Below, one piece after another: positions 1 through 18,235 of a stretch of DNA of 30,256 nt. The stretch lies in the IMG/VR virus record IMGVR_UViG_3300044786_000093; one strand, given 5' to 3'. Below the pieces are notes generated by a model, which searched no databases, was not told the origin of the DNA, and saw nothing but the letters and a program-made list of their open reading frames with translations. The position numbers and the translations under genes were made by a program. Position 1 is the stretch's first letter. Every line of letters begins with the position of its first letter. The stretch comes from a virus.

Positions 1-127
1 ACCCCCGACTGCCCCCGACCTGATCGGGGGGGGGGCCAGCGCCTACCGCCCCCACGCGCACCCGCGCCAGCTTGTGCCCTTCAACGATCACGCTTCCCAG
101 CGTGCCCATGTCGGGCTGCTCATGCAG
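1..127. repeat. Terminal direct repeat. Bases 1-127 are identical to 30130-30256, so the contig ends overlap and the unit is circular or circularly permuted, about 30,129 bp.
   Basis: Both ends read base by base: acccccgactgcccccgacctgatcgggggggggg...tcgggctgctcatgcag occurs at each terminus. Confidence 0.95.
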
Positions 128-618: not shown

Positions 619-797
619 CGCCACGCGCCCGAGATCCCCGACGCCCACCACTCCCCCAGCGCCGCGATCACCACGACCAGCGCGTACCAAAGCAGCTCGC
701 GGTTGCGCCAAGCCCACCGACTGACCGACTTCGTCCCCGACCTAATCGGGGATCGGACTTCGGACTTACCGACTCCGGACTGACTGACCGCGCTCAT
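615..797 (-). CDS. Small membrane protein (60 aa, one hydrophobic helix LLWYALVVVIAALGEWW).
   Basis: It lies in ORF 615..830(-). The ATG at 797 forms an ATGA overlap with the stop of the upstream gene (794-796). Its N-terminus is encoded by the heptad repeats and a hairpin element. Confidence 0.55.
   Translation of the reverse strand: MSAVSQSGVGKSEVRSPIRSGTKSVSRWAWRNRELLWYALVVVIAALGEWWASGISGAWR
733..753. repeat. Hairpin element of the variant family (GTCCCCGA-CCTAA-TCGGGGAT).
   Basis: 7-bp palindromic stem. The reverse complement ATCCCCGATTAGGTCGGGGAC parallels the main family ATCCCCGCGCAGGCGGGGAC, with a C:G to A:T compensatory pair. Confidence 0.7.
754..788. repeat. Imperfect heptad repeats (cggactt cggactt accgact ccggact gactgac).
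   Basis: Read directly. Same repeat family as at 1071, 10474, 17845, 22023 and 25382. Confidence 0.7.
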
Positions 798-4004: not shown

Positions 4005-4310
4005 ATGCTCACCGATACCATCACCCCCACCCGCACCATCTCGCACGCGCTCGCGCTCGCGAGCGACGGCGGCTATGCTGCGCTGCACGAACTCGCCACG
4101 CTCACGCCGCTCAGCGCCGGCGACCTGTGCCTGCTGGCGACCGGCGCGAACCCGCGCATGAGCCAGGCCGGGATTGACCTGGCGCTGGCGCTGTATCATG
4201 AGCGCGAGGGCACGCACATCGGCGCGCATGGAGGCAGCGTTTGTGAGGTCTGCGATCTGGACGCCGTGAATGAGTACGCGCTGAAAATCCTGCTGGAGGC
4301 GCAGCGATGA
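4005..4310 (+). CDS. Hypothetical protein (101 aa).
   Basis: ccGGAGGAcatcATG RBS. ORF track. Confidence 0.75.
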   Translation: MLTDTITPTRTISHALALASDGGYAALHELATLTPLSAGDLCLLATGANPRMSQAGIDLALALYHEREGTHIGAHGGSVCEVCDLDAVNEYALKILLEAQR

Positions 4311-4597
4311 ACACGCTCTCGCTCGAGGCCCAGCGCGCGGTCGAGGAGTCTGCCGCGCGCAGCCGCCTGCACGCAGCGCGCTACGGCGTGCGCTTCACCG
4401 TCATCCTGTCCGATCCCGGCACGCGGATGCGGCGCGCCGGCCAGGAGGTGCCGCTGCGCGCCGCCGTCGCCGGCAGCGACGGCACGATCAACTACATCAG
4501 CGCCGACGCGGACGGCCTGCTGCACTGCACGTGCCGCGCGGATCCCCGCGCAGGCGGGGACTGTGCGCACCTGAACGCCTACACGCGCCACATGTAA
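4307..4597 (+). CDS. SWIM-type zinc-finger protein (96 aa).
   Basis: ATGA overlap with the upstream gene. A CxC-x10-CxH motif (HCTCRADPRAGGDCAH) is present. The palindromic element 4542-4561 encodes the DPRAGGD loop. Confidence 0.7.
   Translation: MNTLSLEAQRAVEESAARSRLHAARYGVRFTVILSDPGTRMRRAGQEVPLRAAVAGSDGTINYISADADGLLHCTCRADPRAGGDCAHLNAYTRHM
4542..4561 (+). repeat. Palindromic hairpin element, copy 1 (ATCCCCGCGCAGGCGGGGAC), in frame within a CDS.
   Basis: Exact 20-mer, also at 9880-9899 and 16128-16147. Confidence 0.9.
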
Positions 4598-4605
4598 AAA
4601 CGAAA

Positions 4606-4634
4606 GCCCGCTGCGGAGGGGGGCCGCAGCGGGC
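4606..4634. terminator. GC-rich hairpin (gcccgctgcgg-agggggg-ccgcagcgggc). The U-tract is on the minus-strand side.
   Basis: An 11-bp perfect stem, with aaaaacgaaa upstream on + (equal to tttcgttttt downstream on -). Confidence 0.5.
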
Positions 4635-4697
4635 AAATGGGCGGACTGGCTCCGTGCGAACCAGCCGCCTACAATTAGGATAGCAGAAAGGAGCACC

Positions 4698-5207
4698 ATG
4701 TCAACACCCAACGGCACACTCCATTGCACGATCTGCGGCGAAGTCCTGCCCGCTCACAAGCCTGGCTGCAAGCACAACCCGGCGAACGCCAGGCCCGCCG
4801 CGATCCAACGCGAGGCCCCCTACACCGGCCCGCGCATCACCTGGTCGTCGCTGGCGACGCACATCAAGGCGCTCTATCTCGACCCGCCCAAGACGCTCAC
4901 GATCCGCGCGCTCAAATACGAGGTCACGCGCGGCCAGGACGGCAACGAGCGCAAGGTGGAGGTGCTCGCCTTCCGCGAGTGCCCGCAGACCTTGATTTTG
5001 AATGAGAGCTGCAAAGACGCGCTCTTCGCGCTCTTCGGCGACGACGTGTCCGCGTGTGTCGGCAAGGCCATCACGCTCTACGCTAAGCCGTTCGGCAAGC
5101 GCCGCATCGCCGCAATCCGCGCCGCCAACGGCACGTCCCCAGCGGCGGCGCCGGTCCCCGCGCAGGCGGGGATGGCCGCGCCCGAGGCCGAGGAAGAGAA
5201 GTTCTAA
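4698..5207 (+). CDS. Hypothetical protein (169 aa). Possibly an SSB-like OB-fold protein with an acidic C-terminal tail ending in F; this is a weak call.
   Basis: aAAGGAGcaccATG RBS. N-terminal CxxC...C. C-terminus ...APEAEEEKF. Carries element copy 2. Confidence 0.7.
   Translation: MSTPNGTLHCTICGEVLPAHKPGCKHNPANARPAAIQREAPYTGPRITWSSLATHIKALYLDPPKTLTIRALKYEVTRGQDGNERKVEVLAFRECPQTLILNESCKDALFALFGDDVSACVGKAITLYAKPFGKRRIAAIRAANGTSPAAAPVPAQAGMAAPEAEEEKF
5154..5173 (-). repeat. Palindromic hairpin element, copy 2 (GTCCCCGCGCAGGCGGGGAT on +).
   Basis: Same stem and loop, with the flanking A/C swapped. It lies inside a CDS in a different reading frame (PVPAQAGM). Confidence 0.8.
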
Positions 5208-5211
5208 CCCA

Positions 5212-5267
5212 CCCCCGCCCTTGCGGGGGCAAGCCCAGGGGGCAGCGTCAGAAACGGCGCTGCCCCC
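5212..5267 (+). terminator. Two tandem GC hairpins after the 4698-5207 gene.
   Basis: cccccgc-cctt-gcggggg (5212-5229, element-like) and gggggcagcg-tcagaaacgg-cgctgccccc (5238-5267). Confidence 0.5.
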
Positions 5268-5285
5268 ACCACACCGGAGGACATC

Positions 5286-5549
5286 ATGACACGCACACAG
5301 AAAGAAGCCGCAGCGCACGCAAAACGAATCCTGTGGAACGCTACCGAGGCGATAGAGTACGCCGTCGCACTGCTGACAGAGTGCAACTGCCGCGCCGAAG
5401 CGGCGGCGATCTCGGCCACCTGCGCCGGAATCTACCCGGACGAGGACAAGCCCGAAAATTGGCCGGAGGACGATACGCCCGCACCCACGCCGCCCGCGCC
5501 CGTCGCCACGCTCTGGCAGGACGAGCCGGACGAGGAGGAGAAACCCTAA
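5286..5549 (+). CDS. Hypothetical acidic protein (87 aa).
   Basis: ccGGAGGAcatcATG RBS. ORF track. Confidence 0.75.
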   Translation: MTRTQKEAAAHAKRILWNATEAIEYAVALLTECNCRAEAAAISATCAGIYPDEDKPENWPEDDTPAPTPPAPVATLWQDEPDEEEKP

Positions 5550-5623
5550 CCGAACCGTTGCCATTCTCGCGCCAGGATCGTGCTACACTCAACTCACACC
5601 ATCACTCACAATCGGAGGACACC

Positions 5624-5887
5624 ATGAACAAGAATGAGATCAAAGCCAAGCTTGCGGAGTTCTTCCGCAACCATCAGATTTCTTCGCCGCACGGCACGTT
5701 CGGCCACGTTGGAACAAACGACGGCATTACGACTTGCTCGTGTGGCGCGCGCTGGCACACGTTCTACTCGCGCTACGGTTTGGAGTGGCGCGCGCTCAAC
5801 GAGCAGGCCACCGCGCACGACCAGGCGCAGGCCACGCTCCCGGACGGTTACGGCCTGGACATGGAAGGCAACCTGTTCAAGGAATAG
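5624..5887 (+). CDS. Hypothetical protein (87 aa).
   Basis: tcGGAGGAcaccATG RBS. The C-terminal part of ORF 5333..5887. Confidence 0.75.
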   Translation: MNKNEIKAKLAEFFRNHQISSPHGTFGHVGTNDGITTCSCGARWHTFYSRYGLEWRALNEQATAHDQAQATLPDGYGLDMEGNLFKE

Positions 5888-5909
5888 CCGTCGCACATCG
5901 CCCCACCTG

Positions 5910-5940
5910 CCCCGGCCCGTGCGCCGGGGCTTCCATTTCG
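5910..5940 (+). terminator. Intrinsic terminator-like hairpin.
   Basis: ccccggc-ccgtgc-gccgggg followed by cttccatttcg. Confidence 0.55.
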
Positions 5941-5989
5941 CAAAGCCATTTCCGATTTTGCTATGCGAAATCGTAGCGAGGTGTGCTCC

Positions 5990-6450
5990 AATTTGTTCGC
6001 AGCCGGGCAGGCCAGGGCCGCGCAGCAAGCCACCGCCGAGGCAGGCCGGAGTATCTGCAGCGGTCGGCCTAGGTCCCGGAAAGAAAGCGGGATCGGCGCG
6101 CGGCGCGCTGGGCGGAAGGGCGCGGAGCGGACGGCGCGACTCCAGCCGCGCAACGCGGCTTGGGCCGCGCCGACGCCCGCGCAGAATTTGAAGATGCGCG
6201 CAAAGGACGCGCGTCGCAGGCCTGCCCCATCATGGGGATAAACTTATCACGTGAAGGCCCAGGGGCGCAGCGCCTGCGCTCCGGCGCGAAGCGTGCCGGG
6301 TGGGGGTGCGCTCCCCCCACAACCCCCCGCGCGGGAGACACCCCGCGACCCCGGCAGGGGAGCGAGCAAAGCCCCCTGCACCCCCACACCGAGACCGGCA
6401 ACAAGCCACCGCTCCGGGAGTCCGAAGTATCCGCAGCGGTCAACCGTCAA
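5990..6450. other. Hairpin-dense, T-poor non-coding block bounded by 44-nt imperfect direct repeats (6026-6069 and 6402-6445).
   Basis: The repeats share caagccaccgc...agtatcYgcagcggtc..cc (about 35/44 identical). Internal hairpins: gcgcg-caaagga-cgcgc, gcgcag-cgc-ctgcgc, ccggcGCGAAGCgtgccgg, ggggg-tgcgct-ccccc. No ORF has an RBS or a GC3 signature. Confidence 0.55.
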
Positions 6451-6478
6451 CCGCTTTCCAACCCGCCGAATCTCCCAC

Positions 6479-6507
6479 TTGACGCGCATCTAGACCGGGT
6501 GTATAAA
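6479..6507 (+). promoter_or_regulatory. Sigma70-type promoter (TTGACG-N17-TATAAA) giving a leaderless or near-leaderless mRNA.
   Basis: cacTTGACGcgcatctagaccgggtgTATAAAgaagccATG. The ATG (6514) begins 7 nt after the -10 hexamer and there is no SD. Confidence 0.65.
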
Positions 6508-6513
6508 GAAGCC

Positions 6514-6726
6514 ATGCCCAAACCCCAACCCCGCCCCGCCCCCTACATCTCCATCACCGAGGCCGCCGAGCGATCCGGCCTGACCCACCAGTGGATTCAC
6601 CAGCTCGTCGCCAAGGGCAAAGACGGCCCCTTCCCCGGCGCATGCCAACTCACCAAAGAGTCGAACTCGCCCTACCTGATCCCCGCCACCGAGTTCGAGG
6701 CGTGGCTGAGAGCGAGAGAGACGTGA
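6514..6726 (+). CDS. Excisionase/AlpA-type HTH DNA-binding protein (70 aa). Candidate Xis or lysogeny-switch regulator.
   Basis: YISITEAAERSGLTHQWIHQLV...IPATEFEAWL resembles excisionase-family HTH. It lies about 400 nt from the integrase. Confidence 0.65.
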   Translation: MPKPQPRPAPYISITEAAERSGLTHQWIHQLVAKGKDGPFPGACQLTKESNSPYLIPATEFEAWLRARET

Positions 6727-6989
6727 CCCCTAACATCTTCGCCACCTACTTCGCGGCCCAACTCTCCGGCCACCCGCCGAAGTGGCAGCCCGTGGACACG
6801 CTTTCCGTCCAATTCGAGTCCGGCAAGATCGTCGGACTCACCTACTACAGCAAACACTTTGAACTCTCGCCCGACATCGAGATCAAGGGCGTGGCCCGCG
6901 TCGCCTACGACCAGGCGACCAACACCATCTACTACTACGTCCCCAAAGAAGAAAAACGCGGCCAGCCCCCCCGCGAAGGCGGGGGCTGA
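6723..6989 (+). CDS. Hypothetical protein (88 aa).
   Basis: GTGA start/stop overlap with the upstream gene. In frame with ORF 6591..6989. The C-terminus is encoded by an element-like hairpin (6968-6985). Confidence 0.6.
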   Translation: MTPNIFATYFAAQLSGHPPKWQPVDTLSVQFESGKIVGLTYYSKHFELSPDIEIKGVARVAYDQATNTIYYYVPKEEKRGQPPREGGG

Positions 6990-7088
6990 CCGCGTCGTCG
7001 CACTACTCGGCCCTCCAGGCCGACCGCGCCCACATCCGCTAAGAGTGAGGGCAGCGGCCAGCACATTAAAAACCGAATAGCACGACAG

Positions 7089-7123
7089 TGAGCCGCCCAG
7101 GACTTGAACCCGGAACCAAGTGT
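7089..7123 (-). other. tRNA 3'-end-like segment (T-arm plus acceptor 3' strand). Candidate attP core.
   Basis: The minus strand reads ..ggttCCGGGTTCAAGTCCTGGGCGGCTCA: T-stem/loop GGTTCAAGTCC followed by a 7-nt acceptor strand. No complete cloverleaf lies upstream. It directly abuts the integrase stop codon. Confidence 0.6.
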
Positions 7124-8044
7124 TTAAGGCGCATGTGCCCCACCCAGCAGGTGCAGCACCGGCGAGTAGCGGTCAAACAGCGTCGCGTCCGCGCTCGCCA
7201 TCTGCGCCATCAGCCAACGCGTGTACTCCTCGACGTGCTGAAAGTCGTCCCAGCGGCCGAAGAACTGTAACATGCGCGTGGGGCAGTTTGCAAGAGTCAT
7301 CCCGCACGAGAACGCCCGCCGCCAGGCGTGCGGCGAGAACGCCTTGACCCCGGCGCGCCCGGCCGCCCGTCGGCACAGGCACTTCAGCCCGCCGCGCGTC
7401 AGAGCCTGCCCCCGCTCCGCACCAAAGCCCAGGCCGACGAAGAGCGTCTCCGCGCCCGCCGCCGCGACCTGCGGCCGCGCGCCCAGCCAGGCCGCCAGCG
7501 CCGCCGCGGTCGGCGCGCTGAAGAACCCAAACTTCGTCTGTCCCCCCTTCACGACCACGTCGAACACACGCCGCTCTAGATCCACGTCGCCGATCCGCAG
7601 CCGACAGACTTCCGAGGCGCGCAGGCCCGAGTCGTACAGCAGCATGAAAATGGCCGTGTCGCGTGCACCCGTGACCGTGCTCGTGTCGCACGCCGCCAGC
7701 ACCGCCAACACTTCTCCGGCCGAGAGCGTGCGCTGCACCCGGCGCGGCACGCGCGGATAGGGCAGCCCGCGCGCCGGGGACGAGTCCCCGAGCGACCACT
7801 TGAAGAAACTGCGCATCCCCGCGAGCGCGCGCCTGGTCGCCGAGGCCCCCACCCCCGCCGCCCGCCGCTCAGCCAGGTAGCGCGTCAGGTCCGCCGTCCG
7901 CCAATCGCCGAGGCCCACGACCGGCGGCGATTGCGCCGCACCCCATCGCACCAGTGCCCGCACGTCGAAGCCGTAGCCGACACACGTCTCCGGCGCGTGG
8001 CACAGGGCCAACCAGTTCAGCCAGTCCCCGATCAACTGCTCCAT
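7124..8044 (-). CDS. int: Tyrosine recombinase/integrase (306 aa).
   Basis: N-terminal SAM-like core-binding region. Catalytic signature GLRASE...KGG...HAWRRAF...GRW...Y(TRW). SD-like gggggagagaaagac precedes the ATG. Confidence 0.9.
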   Translation of the reverse strand: MEQLIGDWLNWLALCHAPETCVGYGFDVRALVRWGAAQSPPVVGLGDWRTADLTRYLAERRAAGVGASATRRALAGMRSFFKWSLGDSSPARGLPYPRVPRRVQRTLSAGEVLAVLAACDTSTVTGARDTAIFMLLYDSGLRASEVCRLRIGDVDLERRVFDVVVKGGQTKFGFFSAPTAAALAAWLGARPQVAAAGAETLFVGLGFGAERGQALTRGGLKCLCRRAAGRAGVKAFSPHAWRRAFSCGMTLANCPTRMLQFFGRWDDFQHVEEYTRWLMAQMASADATLFDRYSPVLHLLGGAHAP

Positions 8045-8062
8045 GTCTTTCTCTCCCCCGCT

Positions 8063-8103
8063 CCCCGCTTAAAAGGCGGGGCGCGGACTCAAAGAGTCCG
8101 CGC
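8063..8103. terminator. Two adjacent hairpins in the int upstream region.
   Basis: ccccgc-ttaaaag-gcgggg and gcgcggactc-aaa-gagtccgcgc (10-bp perfect stem). Confidence 0.45.
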
Positions 8104-8240
8104 CGCCTCCCCGGCGCGTGATCTCTGACGCTGGCGCACCGCCGACACCGGCGCGCCCGTCATCACACATCAGCACTTTAGCACGAAGGAGAAGTGAGCG
8201 GCCACATTTCAAATCAACTTCAAACTATCCATGTGTCCCA

Positions 8241-8260
8241 ATCCCCGCGAAGGCGGGGAC
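8241..8260 (+). repeat. Palindromic hairpin element, copy 3 (ATCCCCGCGAAGGCGGGGAC), intergenic.
   Basis: Identical to copy 6 (13529-13548). Confidence 0.9.
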
Positions 8261-8269
8261 CATCACTCG

Positions 8270-8298
8270 CCCGGCGCAGCCCGGCCCGCTGCGCCGGG
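8270..8298 (+). terminator. GC hairpin (cccggcgcag-cccggcccg-ctgcgccggg).
   Basis: 10-bp perfect stem. No clear U-tract. Confidence 0.4.
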
Positions 8299-8322
8299 CG
8301 ATCTTCACCCGAAGGAGAAACC

Positions 8323-8679
8323 ATGAAGCCAATCACCATTCCGCGACCCAGGGAGAACCCTATGCCACTGCCCGCCCACGTCGTCATCGTCACAACCGGC
8401 GATCTCGACCTGTCAACCGAGCAGGGAGTCGAAACCTGCGTACGCCGCATGTGGGCTGTGCCGCTAGATAGGTCAATCCTTCTGGATTTCCTGTTGGGCT
8501 ATCAGCGCGGCGGCGACCACACCAGCGAGGAGCACCTTGAGCTTCACCGCTTGCAGGCGCTGCTCAATTCGCAACTGCGGCACAAGCGCTTCGACTTTCT
8601 GAGCAAGGGGTTGGCCGCAACGCTGTTTCGCCAAGCCGTGCGCGATCTGCCCAACATCGTGCGGAAAGCATCCGGCTAG
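8323..8679 (+). CDS. Hypothetical protein (118 aa).
   Basis: gAAGGAGaaaccATG RBS. The upstream part of ORF 8194..8679 reads through hairpins and is Arg-rich. Confidence 0.7.
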   Translation: MKPITIPRPRENPMPLPAHVVIVTTGDLDLSTEQGVETCVRRMWAVPLDRSILLDFLLGYQRGGDHTSEEHLELHRLQALLNSQLRHKRFDFLSKGLAATLFRQAVRDLPNIVRKASG

Positions 8680-8692
8680 AAGGAGAAGCGCC

Positions 8693-8962
8693 ATGCCACA
8701 ACACCCCGTGCACCACGTTCAATTCATCTCGAACATCCCCGACCTGCTCCGCGCCATCGCCGACGGCGGCGAACTCGTGATGACCCACGACGGCGAGGCG
8801 CGCGAGACCTGGCATGTCGCAAAGCCCGGCAAGCCCGACCGCCGCGTGCTCGCTTCCACCGCCCGCGCCGCCAAGCGCAAGGGCTACATCGTCCCCAGCG
8901 GCATACTCTACTGGCATCTCACCATCGCCGGTGAGCGCGCACGAGAGCGAGGCAAGACATGA
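8693..8962 (+). CDS. Hypothetical protein (89 aa).
   Basis: gAAGGAGaagcgccATG RBS. Confidence 0.75.
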   Translation: MPQHPVHHVQFISNIPDLLRAIADGGELVMTHDGEARETWHVAKPGKPDRRVLASTARAAKRKGYIVPSGILYWHLTIAGERARERGKT

Positions 8963-9165
8963 AACTCTGCGATCTCTGCTACCGCCGCCGCGCCGCCAAA
9001 CGCTTCACGCTCCGCCCGCGCAATTCGACCACGTGCCGCTGCGACCGGCCCGCCTGCGCCGTGGACACGCGCTACGTCGCACATGCCGAGGTCATCCCCA
9101 TGCTGCCCGAAGACCCTTCGACCGTTCGACTAGCTCACGGCTCAGGAGAGACGCCCGATGAATAA
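8959..9165 (+). CDS. Hypothetical Cys-rich protein (68 aa).
   Basis: ATGA overlap with the upstream gene. CDLC...CRCDRPAC. Confidence 0.65.
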   Translation: MKLCDLCYRRRAAKRFTLRPRNSTTCRCDRPACAVDTRYVAHAEVIPMLPEDPSTVRLAHGSGETPDE

Positions 9166-9514
9166 CAACGACGAACTCGCCAACACACCCATCGCGCACT
9201 ACCACCGCCCCGACGGCATCACGTGCTCGCTCGTCGAGACCAGCCCGCGCGCCGCCGCCTGGCTGCACGTCTTCCACCGGCTCGACGGCATCCCCGTCAC
9301 GTCGCTCTACGCCGAGAAGATGGAGCAGCCCGACCACAGCACCGCGCGCGTTCACATGCTCGACCTGTCCCGCATCACCGGCGCCGAGCGCGCACGGCTC
9401 ATCGTGCACATCGCGCAGAAGTCCGGCGCACCCGCGCACATCGTCGACCAGGAACTCGACATCGCCGGCTGCTCGATCCTGGCGACCGACGTCACGGTCT
9501 CGATCCCGATCTAA
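9158..9514 (+). CDS. Hypothetical protein (118 aa).
   Basis: AGGAGA lies 8 nt upstream. 8-nt overlap with the upstream gene. Confidence 0.7.
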   Translation: MNNNDELANTPIAHYHRPDGITCSLVETSPRAAAWLHVFHRLDGIPVTSLYAEKMEQPDHSTARVHMLDLSRITGAERARLIVHIAQKSGAPAHIVDQELDIAGCSILATDVTVSIPI

Positions 9515-9520
9515 CAACAG

Positions 9521-9566
9521 CGCCCGGCGTGTCCCCGACCTGATCGGGGATGACACACGCCGGGCG
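9521..9566 (+). terminator. Nested hairpin: a 12-bp outer stem enclosing a variant hairpin element (9531-9551).
   Basis: cgcccggcgtgt-[ccccgacctgatcgggg]-atg-acacgccgggcg. Confidence 0.55.
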
Positions 9567-9591
9567 ATTGGGCCGGAGGACTCCAGCCACC

Positions 9592-9611
9592 ATCCCCGCC
9601 TTCGCGGGGAC
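9592..9611 (+). repeat. Palindromic hairpin element, copy 4 (ATCCCCGCCTTCGCGGGGAC; loop inverted relative to copies 3 and 6), intergenic.
   Basis: Read directly. Confidence 0.85.
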
Positions 9612-9653
9612 ACCATCTGCCCACCATCTTACACCAAATCGCCGGAGGACACT

Positions 9654-10160
9654 ATGGATTACCTGGTCATGCTCAGCATCGGCTTCGCGCTCGGCTTCGC
9701 CTACCACGCGCTCGCCCCCTGGCGCGAGAGCAAAACGCTCTCGCTCCAACCCATCACGCGCTACGAGTTCACCCCGCCCGTGCGCGTCGAGCCGACCAGC
9801 CACCGCGAACAGTGGTGCCTGTGGACGCACCACTACATCGCGCTCGTCGAGGCGCTGCAACGCGAACGCGGCGCACACCATCCCCGCGCAGGCGGGGACT
9901 GGCTGCCCAGCTACAGGATGCTGCGCGACGAGACCGGGCAGACCTGGCGCACATTCAAAGTTTACGACGACCTACTCGCACATTCCGGCGTGATCGCCGT
10001 CGTCGGGCAGGGGGGCCGACGCTGGCGCGTGCGCAAGCCGCTGCGCCGAAAGTGCCTGAGCACCCTGCCCTACCCTTTCCCCACCCGCCCGCCGCGCTTC
10101 GACTTCACCGTACAGCGTGACAGCGTGACAGGCGTTACAGCGTTTCAGGAGATGCAATGA
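9654..10160 (+). CDS. Hypothetical protein (168 aa) with an N-terminal hydrophobic segment.
   Basis: ccGGAGGAcactATG RBS. Contains element copy 5, encoding HPRAGGD. Confidence 0.75.
   Translation: MDYLVMLSIGFALGFAYHALAPWRESKTLSLQPITRYEFTPPVRVEPTSHREQWCLWTHHYIALVEALQRERGAHHPRAGGDWLPSYRMLRDETGQTWRTFKVYDDLLAHSGVIAVVGQGGRRWRVRKPLRRKCLSTLPYPFPTRPPRFDFTVQRDSVTGVTAFQEMQ
9880..9899 (+). repeat. Palindromic hairpin element, copy 5 (ATCCCCGCGCAGGCGGGGAC), in frame within a CDS.
   Basis: Exact 20-mer. Confidence 0.9.
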
Positions 10161-10480
10161 AAACCTACAACGCCACCCCGCGCGCGCGCGAGGCCGCCGA
10201 TCAAATTGAAATGCTTATGGCCGTCGAGGGCCAGCCAGTACACGTCATCGTCCACGACACCGGCCGCGCCATCGAGATCGTCGTGCCCGCCGACGTGCCC
10301 GACAAACTCCGCGCCAGCCCGCACGTCCCGGCGAGTATGGCCGTCGGACTCGCCACCCACGCGCGCTACGTCCAGTGGGCGCGGAGGCCCAGCACGAGTC
10401 TCTTCGTCCTGTGCGACGACCAGGAGACATTCGAGCAGTACGACCAAATGCTCAACCCGCCCCAGCCGTCTGACGACTGA
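10157..10480 (+). CDS. Hypothetical protein (107 aa).
   Basis: ATGA overlap. GGAG lies 5 nt upstream. Confidence 0.75.
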   Translation: MKTYNATPRAREAADQIEMLMAVEGQPVHVIVHDTGRAIEIVVPADVPDKLRASPHVPASMAVGLATHARYVQWARRPSTSLFVLCDDQETFEQYDQMLNPPQPSDD

Positions 10481-10510
10481 GGACTGAGGACTGAGAACTG
10501 AGGACTGACC
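10474..10510 (+). repeat. Five in-phase heptads (cgacTGA ggacTGA ggacTGA gaacTGA ggacTGA) filling the intergenic gap.
   Basis: TGA occurs at 10471, 10478 (the real stop), 10485, 10492, 10499 and 10506, so each frame is closed twice. The last GAGGA lies 6 nt before ATG 10511. Confidence 0.85.
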
Positions 10511-10900
10511 ATGACCACCCGCCTACGTTCCGTGCACACCCACCCCGCCCGCCGCCTGACCGTGCTCATCGGCGCGCTCACTGCGCTCCCCGAGGTCGCC
10601 GAGGCATCCCCCGCCCCGAGGCGCAACGGGCGCAGACACCCCGCGCCGCACCTTGTCTCCGCGCCGCCCCAGGTCGCCGACATGGGCCGCCTGCTCGCGG
10701 CCTCCGGCGCCTTGGAGGTCTACTACGTGCGCGGCGCCGCCGACATCATCACCGGCCAGGGCGCGCCACACGGCCTTGCCGTCTCGCTCGACCCCGGCTG
10801 CTACCTGCTCGCCCGCTTCCCCAAGGATCACGAGCCGATGGACGGCCAGGTCGCCGTCTTCACCCACCAGCCCGAAGACAGATGGGGGGACGAGCCATGA
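10511..10900 (+). CDS. Hypothetical protein (129 aa).
   Basis: GAGGActgaccATG. ORF track. Confidence 0.65.
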   Translation: MTTRLRSVHTHPARRLTVLIGALTALPEVAEASPAPRRNGRRHPAPHLVSAPPQVADMGRLLAASGALEVYYVRGAADIITGQGAPHGLAVSLDPGCYLLARFPKDHEPMDGQVAVFTHQPEDRWGDEP

Positions 10901-11106
10901 CCACCCGACCCCGATTCTACGCCAAGAGACTGTTCGCGTCACCCGCGCGCCGCGACGCCAACCCGTCCATCTTCGAGCGCGGCAACAACTTTGCCATCGG
11001 CCTGGCCTACAGCACGAATGAAGCCCAACTCATCGTGGACGCGCTCAACGCCTACGTCGAGATGCCCGTCGTCGCCCGCGACGACAAGCAGCCCGAGGAG
11101 TCCTGA
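10897..11106 (+). CDS. Hypothetical protein (69 aa).
   Basis: ATGA overlap with the upstream gene. In frame with ORF 10882..11106. Confidence 0.65.
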   Translation: MTTRPRFYAKRLFASPARRDANPSIFERGNNFAIGLAYSTNEAQLIVDALNAYVEMPVVARDDKQPEES

Positions 11107-11108
11107 CC

Positions 11109-11258
11109 ATGTTCACCCGCCAGTTCAAAATCGCCATCGAGATGAAGATCGTCGCCGTCGAACTGATCGTCCGCCGCCTGTGGAGGCGGCTGCTCATCGT
11201 CACACTGATCGGCTTCCTGCTCGGCGTGCTCATCGTACTGACCTACAGGCTCCCATGA
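11109..11258 (+). CDS. Small membrane protein (49 aa; below the ORF-track cutoff).
   Basis: Hand translation: MFTRQFKIAIEMKIVAVELIVRRLWRRLLIVTLIGFLLGVLIVLTYRLP. GAGGAG lies 8 nt upstream. ATGA overlap with the next gene. Confidence 0.55.
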   Translation: MFTRQFKIAIEMKIVAVELIVRRLWRRLLIVTLIGFLLGVLIVLTYRLP

Positions 11259-11902
11259 CAACCCCCCGCGATCCCGCCGTCCAGTTTCTCCAGCACACCG
11301 CGCCCACCGCGCTCAAGGTGCTCGTCACCCTGGCCGTCTTTCACGACCGCAACGGCCCGGAGGCCGCCGCCGCCCTCCACTGGCTGTGCTGGGCGGCCAA
11401 GATCGGCAGCGCCACCGCCACCCGCACAACCAAATGGCTCGAACACGAGGGCCTCGTCCAGACGTTCTACATCAAAGGCGACAAGCACCTGCGTCTCACC
11501 GCCGCCGCCGCCCAACTGCCCTTGCCGCTCTCCATTACCCCGCCCAACGGAGAGAGTCATCAAAATGATGACTCTCTCGTCCACAGCCCTACTACTGCTA
11601 CTGTTTTAAGTATTAAGTACCATACTATGGATAACTTGCCTGTGGAAAAAGAGAGTCATCAAAATGATGACTCTCTCAGCTTCGCCGACCAGACCGCCCG
11701 CGTGCTCGTCAAACTCGGCGGCGTGCTATACGACCAGGCGCTCGACGCCGTGCAGACCGCCCTGGAGCAGGGCGACAAACAGGCCGACGTGCTCAGCCAG
11801 ATCGAGCAGTGGTCAGGCTGGATCGCCGCCCACATGCCCGAGGTCATCCCGACCATGGGGCTGTCCATTGCGAAGAACTTACAGAAAGGAGCTTGGATGT
11901 AA
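11255..11902 (+). CDS. Winged-helix DNA-binding protein (215 aa). Candidate replication initiator with an internal origin.
   Basis: LKVLVTLAVF...KIGSATATRTTKWLEHEGLVQTFYIKGDKHLRL resembles a wHTH. The gene contains the repeat/AT-rich cassette at 11550-11677, as in the lambda O/ori arrangement. Confidence 0.6.
   Translation: MTTPRDPAVQFLQHTAPTALKVLVTLAVFHDRNGPEAAAALHWLCWAAKIGSATATRTTKWLEHEGLVQTFYIKGDKHLRLTAAAAQLPLPLSITPPNGESHQNDDSLVHSPTTATVLSIKYHTMDNLPVEKESHQNDDSLSFADQTARVLVKLGGVLYDQALDAVQTALEQGDKQADVLSQIEQWSGWIAAHMPEVIPTMGLSIAKNLQKGAWM
11550..11677. promoter_or_regulatory. Candidate origin of replication: two copies of a 28-bp palindromic repeat flanking an AT-rich spacer.
   Basis: agagagtcatc-aaaat-gatgactctctc occurs at 11551-11578 and 11650-11677. 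The spacer gtccacagccctactactgctactgttttaagtattaagtaccatactatggataacttgcc is the most AT-rich stretch of the region. Confidence 0.5.
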
Positions 11903-11995
11903 GCAGCCTGGCCGAGACATCCGGGAATAGGCCCTTTGGGATGATAGCCCCACAGCGCATCGAGGCGCTGGCGGCCACTGAAAGGAGTCACGAAC

Positions 11996-12112
11996 ATGCT
12001 ACGCAAACTCTTGCACAAATGGATCTGCCCCCGCTGCTTGCAGGCTCTCTTGAACATCGGCTCGCGCGGCCACTGCGGCAACTGCGCAAACTGTCCCGGC
12101 TGCCAGAAGTGA
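11996..12112 (+). CDS. Cys-rich mini-protein (38 aa; below the ORF-track cutoff).
   Basis: AAAGGAG lies 8 nt upstream. Sequence MLRKLLHKWICPRCLQALLNIGSRGHCGNCANCPGCQK, with four CxxC-type pairs. Confidence 0.5.
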   Translation: MLRKLLHKWICPRCLQALLNIGSRGHCGNCANCPGCQK

Positions 12113-12116
12113 AGCC

Positions 12117-12227
12117 ATGACCGCGCCCAAGCGCAACGGGACCGCGCTCACCTGCATCCTGCGCCAACTCGCCCGCGCTGCCGCGATTTTGCTTAGCGAA
12201 ATCGTCCAGCCCGGCGTCCCGCAGTAG
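12117..12227 (+). CDS. Short ORF (36 aa) ending at a TAG that is in frame with the next ORF.
   Basis: GC-rich third positions. TAG 12225-12227 is in frame with ATG 12264, and the 36-nt gap also has a coding-like GC3. Confidence 0.35.
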   Translation: MTAPKRNGTALTCILRQLARAAAILLSEIVQPGVPQ

Positions 12228-12263
12228 ACACCGAGGCTGACGGGAGGCCTGACCATCGGCCTG

Positions 12264-12488
12264 ATGCTCGACGGCGGCGCGGGCCGCCCGACGCTCACCC
12301 TCCAACTCGTGCGCGCCTACCAGCACCCGTCCGAGATCGAGTGGGCCACCGTCGTGCGCGCGCTCCCCTATTCGTTGACACCCACCACCTTCCGCCCGCG
12401 CGCCGCGACCGGGGCCAACAGCCGACACGTCCTGTGGGGCACCACGAAGGTCGACGTGCAGGCAAAACTCTTCAATGAAACTCCTTGA
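12264..12488 (+). CDS. Hypothetical protein (74 aa). Possibly the downstream part of an interrupted or read-through gene that starts at 12117.
   Basis: ORF track. No convincing RBS (GGGAGG is 15 nt upstream). Confidence 0.45.
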   Translation: MLDGGAGRPTLTLQLVRAYQHPSEIEWATVVRALPYSLTPTTFRPRAATGANSRHVLWGTTKVDVQAKLFNETP

Positions 12489-13134
12489 TCTCTTCTGCGG
12501 CGCAGGCGGGGCGGCGATGGGCTACCACCGCGCGGGCTTCGACGTGATCGTGGGCGTGGACACCAAACCGCAGCCGCATTACCCGTTCGAGTTCGTGCAG
12601 GCCGACGCGCTCGAATTCTGCGCGGCGCACGGGCGCGAGTTCGACGCCGTCCACGCGTCACCGCCGTGCCACCACTACAGCACTGGCACACAACACAGGA
12701 AAAACCGGGGCATCGTGTACCCTGCCTTAATCGAGCCGACGCAAGCGCTTTTGCTTGAGATAGGACTGCCTTACATCATTGAGAATGTGCCCGGCGCAAA
12801 AAACGACTTGCGAAAACCCGTCATGCTCTGCGGCAGTATGTTCGGGTTAGGCGTGATGCGGCACCGGCTATTTGAGACGAACTGGCCGCTCCCCGTGCCT
12901 GCCCATGCCTGCAACGGCAACGACATTGATCGGGATGCTCTATCGGTGACGCGGCATGGCCCGCCTGCACGCTGGTATCGCAACCACCCAGACAAAACGT
13001 TCAATATCAAGACGTGGCACGCTGCGATGGGCATAGATTGGATGACACGCAGCGAGTTGACCCAAGCCGTCCCGCCCGCCTACACGGAGTACATCGGCGC
13101 GCAACTGCTCGCCGCCGTCCGAGGCGCGAGATGA
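12475..13134 (+). CDS. DNA (cytosine-5) methyltransferase, compact phage type (219 aa).
   Basis: Motif I DLFCGAGG, motif IV SPPCHHYS (catalytic PC), motif VI IIENVPG, RHRLF, motif X TQAVPPAY. Confidence 0.85.
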   Translation: MKLLDLFCGAGGAAMGYHRAGFDVIVGVDTKPQPHYPFEFVQADALEFCAAHGREFDAVHASPPCHHYSTGTQHRKNRGIVYPALIEPTQALLLEIGLPYIIENVPGAKNDLRKPVMLCGSMFGLGVMRHRLFETNWPLPVPAHACNGNDIDRDALSVTRHGPPARWYRNHPDKTFNIKTWHAAMGIDWMTRSELTQAVPPAYTEYIGAQLLAAVRGAR

Positions 13135-13514
13135 AACAGAAGCGCGGCCACTGCCGCACGTGCTCCTGCCAGGTGCTCGGCGCGATCCGGCCCGAGTGCC
13201 TGCGCGGCGTCACCGGCTGGCTCGACGCCCAGGGCGTCCGCCACTTCGACCCGCTCCCGTGCGCCTTCGACGTCACGCGCGTGCTCGACGCCCCGCCGTG
13301 CCACCACAAACACGGACGCGGCCGCTACGAGCACCCCGGCCTCTACAGCCACGACAAGCGCTGCTCCGACTGCGGCAGCCCCATCTCTAACAACTCTGGC
13401 GGGCGCTGCCGCACATGCTCGAGCAAGATCAACGGCGCGAAGCGCAAGGGCGGCCCGCCCAACGAAGCCTGGCGCGTGAGCATGAGCCCGAGCAGACGGG
13501 CGCGCCAGGCATGA
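13131..13514 (+). CDS. Cys-rich zinc-ribbon protein (127 aa).
   Basis: ATGA overlap with the methyltransferase. CRTCSC...CSDCG...CRTCS. Confidence 0.65.
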   Translation: MKQKRGHCRTCSCQVLGAIRPECLRGVTGWLDAQGVRHFDPLPCAFDVTRVLDAPPCHHKHGRGRYEHPGLYSHDKRCSDCGSPISNNSGGRCRTCSSKINGAKRKGGPPNEAWRVSMSPSRRARQA

Positions 13515-13528
13515 CGATGGACGCGGCC

Positions 13529-13548
13529 ATCCCCGCGAAGGCGGGGAC
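13529..13548 (+). repeat. Palindromic hairpin element, copy 6 (ATCCCCGCGAAGGCGGGGAC), intergenic.
   Basis: Exact match to copy 3. Confidence 0.9.
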
Positions 13549-13587
13549 CACAACTGCCCCCGGCCGCCCGGGCAACCCAGGCCATAA

Positions 13588-13770
13588 ATGACGATACCGG
13601 CCGCCGTTGCGCTCTCCTTGGTCTGCTTGACCTGCATCATCGCTGGCGCAACGGTCATCATCATCGTCGTAAACATGCGCTCGTCACAGATCAGCCGCAA
13701 CGAAGAGCACGCGCCCGCACCCGTGCCGTGGTGGGAGCGCATCCCAGGCCACTGGCACGATTCTGCCTAA
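13588..13770 (+). CDS. Small membrane protein (60 aa).
   Basis: ORF track. Hydrophobic helix AAVALSLVCLTCIIAGATVIIIVV. No clear SD. Confidence 0.5.
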   Translation: MTIPAAVALSLVCLTCIIAGATVIIIVVNMRSSQISRNEEHAPAPVPWWERIPGHWHDSA

Positions 13771-13802
13771 CAGAATCGGGGCAGGGGGGCAGGCCACGCT
13801 CA

Positions 13803-13842
13803 CAAATCGTTAGCCATAAGATTAGTTAAGTCTAACGATTTG
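13803..13842. promoter_or_regulatory. AT-rich inverted repeat (caaatcgttag-N18-ctaacgatttg) upstream of the late promoter. Candidate operator, activator site or pac-region element.
   Basis: 11-bp perfect arms. An AT-rich island in GC-rich DNA, about 80 bp upstream of the -35. Confidence 0.45.
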
Positions 13843-13877
13843 CCAATTTCCCCCTTCCCCGCTCCACTTCTTCCTTG

Positions 13878-13922
13878 ACCCCCGACTTGGATCGAGGGCT
13901 GGCCCCCAATCTGGTCGGGGGT
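13878..13922. repeat. Long hairpin (acccccgac...gtcgggggt) built from two degenerate variant elements. It abuts the -35 of the late promoter.
   Basis: Contains cccccgacttggatcgaggg and cccccaatctggtcggggg. Confidence 0.5.
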
Positions 13923-13950
13923 TGACGCCCCCGCTCAATCGTTCTACTAT
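13922..13950 (+). promoter_or_regulatory. Sigma70-type promoter (TTGACG-N17-TACTAT) for the structural operon, with a near-leaderless first ORF.
   Basis: gTTGACGcccccgctcaatcgttcTACTATacccacccATG. Confidence 0.55.
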
Positions 13951-13958
13951 ACCCACCC

Positions 13959-14102
13959 ATGGACAAGCCGCTGGCGCTCTTCTCGCTGCTGCTCGTCGCA
14001 CTTGCGGCGCTCGCCTACACGCTGCTTTTCCACGTCGCCCGCCGCTGGGCCGTCCCGCCTGACTTCTTCAATGCCCAGGTCCCGACCCACTCGCTCCAGT
14101 AA
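13959..14102 (+). CDS. Small membrane protein (47 aa; below the ORF-track cutoff).
   Basis: Hand translation: MDKPLALFSLLLVALAALAYTLLFHVARRWAVPPDFFNAQVPTHSLQ. The ATG lies 8 nt after the -10. Confidence 0.4.
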   Translation: MDKPLALFSLLLVALAALAYTLLFHVARRWAVPPDFFNAQVPTHSLQ

Positions 14103-14448
14103 GACCCGCAGCCGCGGCGCTCAACGCCGCAACTCCAACGCCAAGACCCACGGCTTTTACTCTTCACTCCCGCCCCGCAAACTCGACACCATTACCGACA
14201 TCCTACTCGACGCCCAGGCGCGCCAGGCGCAGCTCTCCACCTACATCGACGCCGTGCTGGCCGAGGGGGCCACAACCGACGACGTGGTCAAGCTCATTGG
14301 CCTCCACGCGCAGGGCGCCACTCGACTGGCCCGCCTGCTCCGCGACCAGCGCGCCCTCGGAGGCCAGGCCGCCGAGGGCCTGACCGCCGCCATCGCCGCC
14401 GCGCTCGACGAGCTGGGAACAGAGATCGGACTCCCCGAGCCGCCCTAA
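14071..14448 (+). CDS. Putative small terminase-like protein (125 aa).
   Basis: Located just upstream of TerL. The N-terminal basic motif RGAQRRNSNAKTHGFYS resembles the N..KHGxYS box I recall from small proteins upstream of terminases. The start is uncertain (TTG 14002 is an alternative). Confidence 0.45.
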   Translation: MPRSRPTRSSKTRSRGAQRRNSNAKTHGFYSSLPPRKLDTITDILLDAQARQAQLSTYIDAVLAEGATTDDVVKLIGLHAQGATRLARLLRDQRALGGQAAEGLTAAIAAALDELGTEIGLPEPP

Positions 14449-14467
14449 AGGGTCGCAAAGAACGCTG

Positions 14468-14716
14468 ATGAACAAAACCCGCCGCCCACCGCGCCAACTC
14501 GGAGCCGCGCTCCGCCGCTTCGCCCAAGCGCTCGTGCCCACCGTCGGCGCCGACCAGGAAGCGCCGCCGCCCGAAAACGACTGGCAGCGCGCGATAGAGC
14601 TGCGCATCTCCAAGCTGGAGCAGGCCACCAACGCACAGAACCGCCTGCTGCTGCTGACCCTGATCAGCATCCTCGCCGAGTTCCTTTATGGATTGCGAAC
14701 GTACATGACGCCATGA
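14468..14716 (+). CDS. Hypothetical protein (82 aa) with a C-terminal hydrophobic helix.
   Basis: ORF track. Weak RBS. Confidence 0.5.
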   Translation: MNKTRRPPRQLGAALRRFAQALVPTVGADQEAPPPENDWQRAIELRISKLEQATNAQNRLLLLTLISILAEFLYGLRTYMTP

Positions 14717-14722
14717 TCACTT

Positions 14723-16282
14723 ATGGACCCATCCTTATTCGCCCAGGCCAAGGAAGCCGCCAAGAAATGGCTGACCCGCATCAGCGGCTTCTCGCGCCTC
14801 GTCATCCACCGGCCCCTCTACCGCTACCAGCTCGCGCCCGCCTGGGCCATCGTGGACTCAGTGCTCCGCAAGCGCGGGCGCGAGTTCGCAATCATGTTCC
14901 CGCGCCAGTCGGGGAAGAACGAGACCCAGGCGCAGATCGAGGCTTACTTGCTCAATCTCTTCCAACTCGTGCCGCAGGCGCAGATCGTCAAGGCCTCGCC
15001 GACCTTCAAGCCGCAGAGCATCAACGCGATGCTGCGGCTCGAGGCCGCGCTGCGCAACGACTGGAACAAGAACGAGATGCGCAAGCGCGAGGGCTACATC
15101 TTCCAACTCGGCCAGGCGACGATCACTTTCTTCTCCGCCGAGCCGCAGGCCCAGGCCGTGGGCGCATCGGCAACGCTCCTACTGGAGGGCGACGAGGCCC
15201 AGGACATCAGCGAGACGCAGTGGGGGTTGAAGTTCGAGCCGATGATGGCCTCCACCAACGCCACCATGGCCCTGTGGGGCACGGCCTGGACTTCCAAAAC
15301 ATTGCTCGCCCGCACGATCAAGCGCCTGCGCGCGCTCGAAGCGCAGGACGGAGTCAAACGAGTGTTCGTCGTCACGCCTGAGCAGGTCGCCCGCGAGAAC
15401 CCGGCCTACGGCGTGTTCGTCGAGCGCCAGGTCGCAAAGCATGGCCGCCAGCATCCGCTCGTGCGCACGCAGTATTTCAACGAGGAGATCGACGCCGAGG
15501 GCGGGATGTTCCCGCCCACCCGCCGCGCACTCATGCAGGGATCGCACCCGCGCCAGAAAGCCCCCCGCCCCAGCGCGATCTATGCCTTCCTATTGGATGT
15601 CGCCGGCGAGGACGAGGGCGCGACCGGCGACCGCGTCGTCGTGGATCGCGCCGAGCTGGCCAACCCGGAGCGCGACGCCGCGTCGCTCACCATCGTCGAG
15701 ATAGACCTGTCCACGCTCTCCGACCCGCTCATCGCCAAACCCACCTACCGCGCCATCCAGCGCGAGCTGTGGGTCGGCACGAAGCACACCGCGCTCTATG
15801 GCAAACTCCGCGCGCTCATCCACCTGTGGAAGCCGCGCTACATCGCCGCCGACGCGACCGGAGTCGGCGCAGGCATCACCAGCTTCCTAGACACCGCCTT
15901 CCCCGGCCGCGTGCTCCCGTTCGTGTTCAACAGCGCGACCAAATCGCGGCTCGGCTGGGATTTCCTGAGCATCGTCGAAACCGGCCGCTGGCAGGATTGG
16001 GCTGTCCCGGAGGACGGGGCCGATCCAGACTCAGAGACATTCTGGCGCGAACTGGAGGCCGTGCAGTACGAGGCCGGTCTAAACCAGACGCTCCGGTGGG
16101 GCGTGCCCCCCAACACGCGCGCTGATGATCCCCGCGCAGGCGGGGACCGGATCGTCCACGACGACACCGTTCTTTCCGCCGCCCTCTGCGCCGTGCTCGA
16201 CGAACAGGAGTGGTTCGTCGGCGGCCCGACGCTCGTCGTGCGAGGCCGCGACCCGCTCGAGGAGATCGACCGTGGCCGCTAA
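14723..16282 (+). CDS. terL: Terminase large subunit (519 aa).
   Basis: Walker A-like FPRQSGKNET, Walker B-like LLLEGDEAQD, and a C-terminal nuclease-like region (AADATGVGAG...). It lies directly before the portal gene. Contains element copy 7. Confidence 0.85.
   Translation: MDPSLFAQAKEAAKKWLTRISGFSRLVIHRPLYRYQLAPAWAIVDSVLRKRGREFAIMFPRQSGKNETQAQIEAYLLNLFQLVPQAQIVKASPTFKPQSINAMLRLEAALRNDWNKNEMRKREGYIFQLGQATITFFSAEPQAQAVGASATLLLEGDEAQDISETQWGLKFEPMMASTNATMALWGTAWTSKTLLARTIKRLRALEAQDGVKRVFVVTPEQVARENPAYGVFVERQVAKHGRQHPLVRTQYFNEEIDAEGGMFPPTRRALMQGSHPRQKAPRPSAIYAFLLDVAGEDEGATGDRVVVDRAELANPERDAASLTIVEIDLSTLSDPLIAKPTYRAIQRELWVGTKHTALYGKLRALIHLWKPRYIAADATGVGAGITSFLDTAFPGRVLPFVFNSATKSRLGWDFLSIVETGRWQDWAVPEDGADPDSETFWRELEAVQYEAGLNQTLRWGVPPNTRADDPRAGGDRIVHDDTVLSAALCAVLDEQEWFVGGPTLVVRGRDPLEEIDRGR
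16128..16147 (+). repeat. Palindromic hairpin element, copy 7 (ATCCCCGCGCAGGCGGGGAC), in frame in terL (DPRAGGD).
   Basis: Exact 20-mer. Confidence 0.9.
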
Positions 16283-17858: not shown

Positions 17859-17874
17859 GGACTGAGGACTGACC
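17845..17874 (+). repeat. Heptads cgacTGA cgacTGA ggacTGA ggacTGA at the portal stop.
   Basis: The second TGA (17856-17858) is the portal stop. GAGGA lies 7 nt before ATG 17876. Confidence 0.85.
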
Positions 17875-17875: not shown

Positions 17876-18235
17876 ATGACCGCTCCCCACGTCACCCGCT
17901 TCCGCAAGGCGCTCGCCGGTTCTTTCTTCCGCGTAGGCTACTACAGCGGCGGCGGCGCGGGCACCGTCGACCCGGAAAAGTTCTGCGTACAGTATCAGAA
18001 GAACCCCACCGCGCCCACGCAGCCCAGCGCGCCCACGCAGCCCAGCGCGCCGACCGGGGCCACACCCGCGACGCCGCCCGCGATGGCGGCCTGCGGCAGC
18101 GCGGCGGGCATACGCAACCCGCCCGTTCCACCAGGCGGCGCACCCAACCCGCCCGCTCCCACCCAGCCACCGCGACCGGCACCGGAGCCGCCACCCGAAG
18201 GGACACCGACACCGCCCACTGGAGGCACACCATGA
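17876..18235 (+). CDS. Pro-rich low-complexity protein (119 aa) with an APTQPS tandem repeat.
   Basis: Heptad-derived SD. ATGA overlap with the capsid gene. Confidence 0.55.
   Translation: MTAPHVTRFRKALAGSFFRVGYYSGGGAGTVDPEKFCVQYQKNPTAPTQPSAPTQPSAPTGATPATPPAMAACGSAAGIRNPPVPPGGAPNPPAPTQPPRPAPEPPPEGTPTPPTGGTP

Follow-up and report, generated by a model that had tools for sequence, protein, structure and literature searches.

Repeats of the REP/REPIN type are short GC-rich palindromes that multiply within a genome, sometimes as inverted pairs, and are thought to be moved by RAYT, a hairpin-recognising enzyme acting on single-stranded DNA (ssDNA), and Rickettsia palindromic elements (RPEs), selfish palindromic repeats of ~100–150 bp, sit in-frame in unrelated open reading frames (ORFs), where they add a peptide in tolerant regions. 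In Neisseria, the repeat dRS3 (ATTCCC-N8-GGGAAT) is, in about half of its copies, the core of a longer motif, NTS (CGTCATTCCCGCGMAVGCGGGAATCYRG), the rest being core-only, and NTS-like "Ssn-related motifs" (SRMs) have been found across phyla (Chenal et al. 2025, PMC11893778). The nuclease SsnA, a 94-aa GIY-YIG protein, binds the motif as ssDNA and cuts just upstream of it, with motifs often flanking its gene; in N. meningitidis, binding by Ssn needs the palindrome and the C that follows it, and cleavage the three upstream bases (PMC11893778). Here, we describe a family of 20-nt hairpins in the virus record IMGVR_UViG_3300044786_000093, a stretch of 30,256 nt (hereafter "the window") that represents a temperate phage, and in which the hairpin core, ATCCCCGCGMAGGCGGGGAC, is letter-for-letter that of GC-rich genomic SRMs. 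Because this core is shared with a bacterial repeat, copies were gained in a lineage-specific manner, a neighbour's flank was transferred along with one of them and others landed in-frame, we posit that the hairpins are probably selfish or neutral, core-only palindromes of the SRM/dRS3 class that recently multiplied in this phage lineage.

The hairpin family and its bacterial counterpart

The motif TCCCCG-N6-CGGGGA matched the window exactly seven times (starts 4543, 5155, 8242, 9593, 9881, 13530 and 16129) against a mean of 0.00 in shuffles, which recovered all seven near-identical copies listed in a first-pass annotation of the same DNA. With the 20-mer at three or fewer mismatches, eight matches were obtained against 0.03 expected, the addition being a degenerate copy that had been placed near 6968 and was found at 6967..6986. 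These eight main-family copies comprise five exact ones with A...C flanks, reading ATCCCCGCG(A/C)AGGCGGGGAC, one with G...T flanks (5154), one with the loop CTTC (9592) and the degenerate one (6967). All fold as hairpins of a 7-bp stem and a loop of 4–5 nt, at about −13 to −15 kcal/mol, and two have the loop turned round with respect to the flanks. Five of the eight are intragenic, with the other three intergenic. The same phage with the same hairpin copies was present at 99.9% identity in independent assemblies from two other samples, so the hairpins are no assembly artefact; an IMG/VR fragment also bears the 13529 and 16128 copies.

Across bacteria, a scan covering one genome per species found the exact 20-mer in at least 120 genome stretches from Alpha-, Beta- and Gammaproteobacteria, Bacteroidota, Planctomycetota and Chloroflexota, the taxa including Sphingomonas, Massilia, Ramlibacter, Pleomorphomonas, Pseudoxanthomonas, Hyphomicrobiales and Thermoguttaceae as well as Bacteroidota and Chloroflexota. 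Outside one locus, the genomic copies (L033-L152) share the oriented consensus cGTCATCCCCGCGMAGGCGGGGACCCAg, which is NTS with a C:G in place of one T:A stem pair and a C in place of the outermost 3′ T, here unpaired, and which has the loop A/C alternation (M) in common with NTS. Among the matches listed, 94 of the 147 genomic 20-mer sites fit the published SRM pattern (HGTCWYN(0-2)YYVSBRHN(0-5)WNVSBRGN(0-2)RNCYNB). At four loci (L075, L066 and L010/L030), a single-domain GIY-YIG gene of ~95 aa (PF01541, E ~1e-15) lies 55–217 nt from exact 20-mers, which flank it in the published SRM-ssn-SRM layout (L075 ~980-1400; L066; L010/L030 ~1130-1600); these loci belong to a Bacteroidota metagenome-assembled genome (MAG), an alphaproteobacterial MAG and IMG/VR contigs from isolate genomes, two being on contigs catalogued as viral. 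The phage 20-mer has exactly the sequence of the SRM-pattern genomic copies near GIY-YIG genes and is colinear with the NTS core (ATTCCCGCGMAVGCGGGAAT), including its loop A/C polymorphism, and SRMs and phage hairpins alike are dispersed, multi-copy and hairpin-forming.

The phage copies also differ from these systems. They lack the GTC(W) upstream and the CYRG downstream of an SRM, are accompanied by no ssn gene and reside in a phage, and their five coding copies out of eight compare with 2% of NTS in N. meningitidis; the literal dRS3 pattern is likewise not followed (ATCCCC-N8-GGGGAC in the window versus ATTCCC-N8-GGGAAT), although the architecture is the same. Since they are core only, without the GTC, a fit to the SRM pattern or a GIY-YIG gene, we do not file them as SRMs; judged by sequence, they are core-only relatives of SRMs, comparable to the half of dRS3 copies without NTS flanks. 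Set against REP/REPIN elements, which they resemble as short GC-rich palindromes multiplying in a genome, they are singlets rather than doublets, some lie inside genes, GTAG/CTAC is absent from their flanks and Pfam identified no transposase among the 40 window ORFs scanned. Among the options first put forward, a host REP-like mobile palindrome fits best, given an exact 20-mer common in bacterial chromosomes and phage copies that are lineage-specific gains.

Genomic copies sometimes form inverted pairs or are nested in one another. In an unrelated viral contig (L008 ~6013-6046), the main hairpin lies in the loop of a variant hairpin, CCCCCGACC[TCCCCGCGCAGGCGGGGA]TCGGGGG, and in an Oceanisphaera MAG (L069 ~5630-5690) one SRM is nested in another; such nested copies suggest insertion into single-stranded hairpin loops.

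Comparison with a close relative

A search with the gene at 9654 retrieved a syntenic relative (L170, L171, L172 and L166) that aligns with the window over a region beginning upstream of the integrase and reaching the capsid gene, at 73–98% nucleotide identity per aligned block (80–86% over long blocks) and contains 0 main-family copies. At 9592 (9592..9611, +, intergenic, inverted loop CTTC), the relative reads CAGC|CACCATCTG and the window has 23 additional nt, with a CACCAT direct repeat on both sides, which gives a clean empty site; at 9531 (9531..9551, −, intergenic, variant family, GTCCCCGACCTGATCGGGGAT), 19 bases of stem-loop in the window face 3 bases in the relative, again an empty site. 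The intergenic copy at 13529 (13529..13548, +, loop GAAG) lies inside a 78-nt insertion, composed of 70 nt of new sequence and the second copy of an 8-nt direct repeat (ATGACGAT) that borders it at 13510-13517 and 13588-13595. Together with 24 nt of 3′ flank, this hairpin is 87% identical (E=2e-8) to the 8241 locus, where another copy (8241..8260, +, loop GAAG) stands between the integrase and the gene at 8323-8679, on the left border of a segment specific to the window; because the relative has that 24-nt flank without the hairpin, the flank is native to 8241. At 6967, the relative reads CAGCCCGAAGGCTGA and the window CAGCCCCCCCGCGAAGGCGGGGGCTGA. The relative, for its part, has a private variant copy, ATCCCCGATCAAGTCGGGGAC (L171:3149-3169), which the window lacks; judged by its sequence, it seems to leave the reading frame intact in the orthologue of window ORF 5963-6241. 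With empty sites and a private copy of its own in the relative, the repeats are thus gained and lost over the short divergence between two closely related phages. An origin of the copies at look-alike sites was considered and rejected, as random windows resemble the 20-mer about as closely as the relative's orthologous sites do (empirical p 0.14-0.93), with 6967 alone giving a suggestive symmetric +6/+6 nt pattern.

The variant family reads GTCCCCGACCT(G/A)ATCGGGGAT at 9531 and at 733 (733..753, −, GTCCCCGACCTAATCGGGGAT), with a look-alike at 12 (12..30, −, CCCCCGACCTGATCGGGGG). The three positions stood up to analysis, whereas the proposed degenerate copies at 13878-13922 are a different, long-loop hairpin and were rejected. 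An exact 127-nt repeat at the window ends (1-127 = 30130-30256) is an assembly overlap, which makes the genome circular and complete at 30,129 bp and the hairpins at 12 and ~30141-30159 one copy, not two. In the first-pass annotation, the variant had been treated as a compensatory change and an argument for selection on the hairpin itself; this argument is weak, the variant being a separate sub-family also present outside the window, in L171 and, there with SRM-type flanks, in L137. A scan of viral contigs for the variant family returned mostly self-complementary chance matches. Two other sites taken for degenerate main-family copies, at 5212 and 8063, are generic GC-rich hairpins, and the relative has unrelated hairpins there. 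Within the protease-capsid gene, GACCCCGCGCGCGGCGGGGAC (18699-18719) encodes DPARGGD and forms a similar hairpin, which is kept in the relative (L170 ~8562-8590) and is a native look-alike, not a family copy.

In-frame copies inside genes

Within coding sequence, translations confirmed the three copies already noted as sharing one reading frame and added a fourth, so that P-R-(A/E)-G-G is encoded in the same frame at 4542, 9880, 16128 and 6967. The 4542 copy (4542..4561, +, ATCCCCGCGCAGGCGGGGAC) reads CRADPRAGGDCAH and encodes DPRAGGD in the linker between the CxC and CxH of a 96-aa ORF (4307-4597, +), where a 9-residue hairpin-encoded linker in the window stands against 19 residues in the relative (10 aa shorter); the name "SWIM" previously given to this ORF had been based only on its CxC-x9-CxH motif, and Pfam yielded no match. 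At 9880 (9880..9899, +), the copy reads AHHPRAGGDWLP and encodes HPRAGGD in a variable linker of a 168-aa gene without functional assignment (9654-10160, +): two outgroups have ERERG-TRPG-WLPSY where the window has AHHPRAGGD, and the relative contains a different insertion. In the large terminase (TerL; 14723-16282, +), the 16128 copy (16128..16147, +) reads RADDPRAGGDRIV and encodes DPRAGGD; the closest orthologue (88% identity) has NTR-DDEG-QIVHDD against NTR-ADDPRAGGD-RIVHDD in the window, a net +15 nt, and across 40 orthologues, reading TR-D(P/D)xxG-(E/Q)(L/I)VHDD, the PRAGGD form occurs in the window alone. The degenerate copy (6967..6986, +, CCCCCCGCGAAGGCGGGGGC) supplies the last codons of ORF 6591-6989 (QPPREGGG*), and the swapped-flank copy at 5154 (5154..5173, −, GTCCCCGCGCAGGCGGGGAT) uses a different frame, giving VPAQAGM in the C-terminal part of ORF 4698-5207. 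Four copies lengthen the sequence they sit in (5154, 6967, 9880 and 16128), by a net +6 to +15 nt.

On the sequences compared, the TerL and 9654-gene copies, at least, are polarised by outgroups as gains in variable linkers: their orthologues are without PRAGGD, so the insert is not ancestral there, and the analogy drawn earlier with in-frame insertion of RPEs holds. Like RPEs, the phage hairpins are palindromic repeats lying in-frame in unrelated ORFs (TerL, the 9654 gene, and ORFs 4307-4597, 4698-5207 and 6591-6989) and adding a peptide in tolerant regions, but at 20 nt and from another sequence family.

Mechanistically, new copies would arise by templated copy-and-paste or conversion of an extruded ssDNA hairpin, a route that, like the enzyme behind it, we infer, and such copying would probably take place during lysogeny, in a host that keeps repeats of this kind together with an enzyme acting on them. 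Purifying selection would then keep the harmless insertions, either intergenic or in-frame as multiples of 3 nt in flexible linkers (P-R-A/E-G-G), and no benefit to the phage would be required.

Alternative explanations

Several observations weigh against selfish multiplication of an SRM/dRS3-class repeat. It does not explain why six of the eight copies share one orientation, why 11 of 11 copies fall within the left 54% of the genome (0.54^11 ~0.001) or why two have a flipped loop, and the perfect 20-nt identity of five copies could reflect selection for a function. Had the relative lost the sequence between its CACCAT repeats, 9592 would look no different, and a consistent target-site duplication was not seen among the copies. 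Upstream GTC(W) is found in 0/7 copies (triplets CGG, CCA, ACC, ACC, GCC, ATG and GCC) and the SRM pattern has 0 matches in the window on both strands, so the phage copies are not demonstrable Ssn substrates. No GIY-YIG/ssn, RAYT or transposase gene was found by Pfam in the 40 window ORFs scanned, and tblastn of three Ssn-like proteins against the phage gave nothing significant; on these searches, a phage-encoded mobilising enzyme was rejected. Finally, the repeats and enzymes of the host enter the argument only by inference.

Functionally, the copies might instead serve the phage as regulatory RNA hairpins, whether factor-dependent terminators or attenuators, 3′-end stabilisers, or RNase or protein sites in early transcripts. 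Most of them do read in the mRNA sense, five stand just before or after stop codons (4542, 5154, 6967, 9531 and 13529), and all lie in the early/lysogeny half plus TerL. A T-run follows no copy, however, and a terminator scan flags none (0 family copies among 24 terminator-like sites, with C/G-rich 3′ flanks), so that intrinsic terminators were rejected for want of T-tails; a known RNA family was likewise rejected, Rfam returning 0 matches at E<=1 for the hairpins. As terminators in the middle of TerL and of the 9654 gene would do harm, and the close syntenic relative manages without any main-family copy, we regard a regulatory role as unlikely. Slightly less credence still goes to the copies being recombination joints, that is, palindromes acting as break or microhomology points for module exchange and marking mosaic boundaries instead of being inserted alone. 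Such a role has been proposed for dRS3 in Neisseria, homology with the relative breaks 0–40 nt from 4542, 5154, 8241 and 13529, and 8241 is at the edge of a window-specific gene; the homology-break test is confounded, though, since a BLAST alignment would stop at an inserted hairpin in any case, and 9531, 9592, 9880 and 16128 are in otherwise collinear sequence. Similarly improbable, in our judgement, is an interplay with a host Ssn-type ssDNA nuclease, in which copies that keep the palindrome and miss the GTC would be bound and not cut, and would titrate or evade the nuclease on single-stranded phage DNA. The binding and cleavage rules from N. meningitidis (PMC11893778) would allow for it, the C directly 3′ of the palindrome being kept in four of seven copies (8241, 13529, 16128 and, on the other strand, 5154) and GTC in none, and the shared strand orientation of six of the eight would suit the strand-specific Ssn; but those rules come from a single enzyme with a different core, an Ssn in the host would have to be assumed, and missing flanks would be just as expected if repeats had decayed or been copied imprecisely; in Neisseria, about half of the dRS3 copies are core-only.

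The headline idea of the first-pass annotation was that the hairpins are decoys for the Cas6e/Cascade of a type I-E CRISPR host, RNA stem-loops that would capture Cas6e and interfere with the maturation of crRNA or the assembly of Cascade, in the manner of RNA anti-CRISPRs. On the I-E stem, the annotation was correct: TCCCCGC-N4-GCGGGGA is the E. coli stem, and the whole stem-loop is identical in a real array of 25 repeats at 61-nt spacing (L051, JAUXYJ010000062.1), whose repeat GTGGTCCCCGCCTGCGCGGGGATGAGCCG includes the 20-mer, and in published I-E repeats with CCCCGCGCAGGCGGGG, those of Corynebacterium ulceribovis (GTGTTCCCCGCGCAGGCGGGGATGAGCC) and Propionibacterium acidipropionici. The minus strand of several copies also runs on into GGGGATGG, like the start of an I-E handle, but this handle-like flank (ATGG; GGGGATGG) is antisense to every local gene. 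Solitary repeat units are called by SRUFinder as full matches at ≥90% identity over ≥90% of a known repeat (PMC10651486), whereas the phage copies, aligned ungapped with seven full I-E repeats, agree at 20–24 of 29 positions (69–83%; the best, 13529, at 24/29), and none reached the 90%/90% level. Compared with the solitary units behind RNA anti-CRISPRs (Camara-Wilpert et al. 2023, PMC10651486), the hairpins share the U-CCCCGC/GCGGGG-A stem and the 4-nt loop found in some real I-E repeats, but lack a 5′ or 3′ handle and are many and mostly intragenic (three of eight intergenic, five in ORFs) instead of one promoter-proximal unit. Their loop alternation, G-A/C-A-G, is exactly that of the NTS/SRM consensus, and the L051 spacers gave only chance matches of 10–15 nt to the phage. 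Nothing beyond the stem backs the decoy idea, and we consider it very unlikely. On its other strand, the GC-rich SRM consensus (CTGGGTCCCCGCCTKCGCGGGGATGACG) has a 23-nt core identical to that of the I-E repeat GTGGTCCCCGCCTGCGCGGGGATGAGCCG, so SRM copies could be mistaken for I-E solitary repeats. It is also conceivable, if a long shot, that the copies are kept on purpose as core-only mimics of the host repeat, with the binding palindrome retained and the cleavage flank lost, blunting or sequestering a hairpin-recognising defence; the mimic would then target an Ssn ssDNA nuclease at the DNA level or the Cas6e of a type I-E system at the RNA level, and as the 23-nt core is common to GC-rich SRMs and some I-E repeats, one mimic could address both.

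Other features of the phage genome

The genome has a G+C content of 66.7% and holds nearly all of its genes on the plus strand, with a gene map that agrees with a separate gene prediction for a contig of another sample (99.9% identity); in that prediction, the portal starts at 16272 and not at the ATG beside the hairpin. A protease-capsid fusion spans 18232-20325, and a tyrosine integrase is encoded at 7124-8044 (−), which makes the phage temperate, with part of its life cycle inside the host chromosome. No DNA-level match of the phage was found among the deposited phage genomes of INPHARED; a short motif query against INPHARED also returned no match, for which the low-complexity filter may account.

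Beside the integrase, 7086-7127 (−) resembles a tRNA or tmRNA 3′ end, with a T-arm (GGGTTCAAGTCCTGG) and an acceptor strand, and is probably the attP core. ARAGORN called no tRNA gene in the window, this fragment included; its sole metagenome match is a 1.1-kb contig of 57% GC (L176; 42 nt in common), and in the relative another tRNA-like fragment occupies the equivalent place. Two modules of the window have no counterpart in the close relative: 8323-8679, a gene for 118 aa that the 8241 hairpin bounds on the left, and 12517-13514, where a C5 cytosine methyltransferase region, matching PHROG 363 and the N-terminal part of PF00145, precedes a 127-aa ORF; the methyltransferase may be truncated or split.

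Tandem heptamers (for example CTGAGGA x5.6, CTGACGA x4.7 and TTTGAAG x4.4) occupy short intergenic gaps just 5′ of start codons, at 10470-10508, 17841-17873, 22023-22063, 25377-25422, 25839-25869, 753-781 and 1019-1112. With a period of 7 and a TGA in the unit, they place stop codons in all three frames, and the GAGGA within them is ribosome-binding-site-like. The heptamer sequence GACTGANGACTGA was found in 0/175 loci compared, and the close relative has a heptamer of its own, (CATCCTT)x3, in a non-coding stretch (~L170:3800). Between two plus-strand genes, the minus strand carries the strongest terminator-like hairpin of the left half (4606-4634; 11 bp, then TTTCGTTTTT) and a near-consensus promoter-like site, TTGACA-16-TATCCT with TG (4677-4704), which hints at antisense or divergent transcription there.

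Implications

SRMs were described only in 2025. The phage offers dated insertions, matched by empty sites in a close relative, and thereby a concise natural archive of how palindromes of this kind travel and of what a genome tolerates, including a neighbour's flank carried along and in-frame landings in the essential TerL. The 23-nt core that SRMs share with an I-E repeat reflects either convergence or common origin, and it calls for caution, as SRM-type hairpins in viral genomes can pass for type I-E CRISPR repeats or for anti-CRISPR RNAs. In a virus, a repeat of 20 nt can remodel protein linkers.

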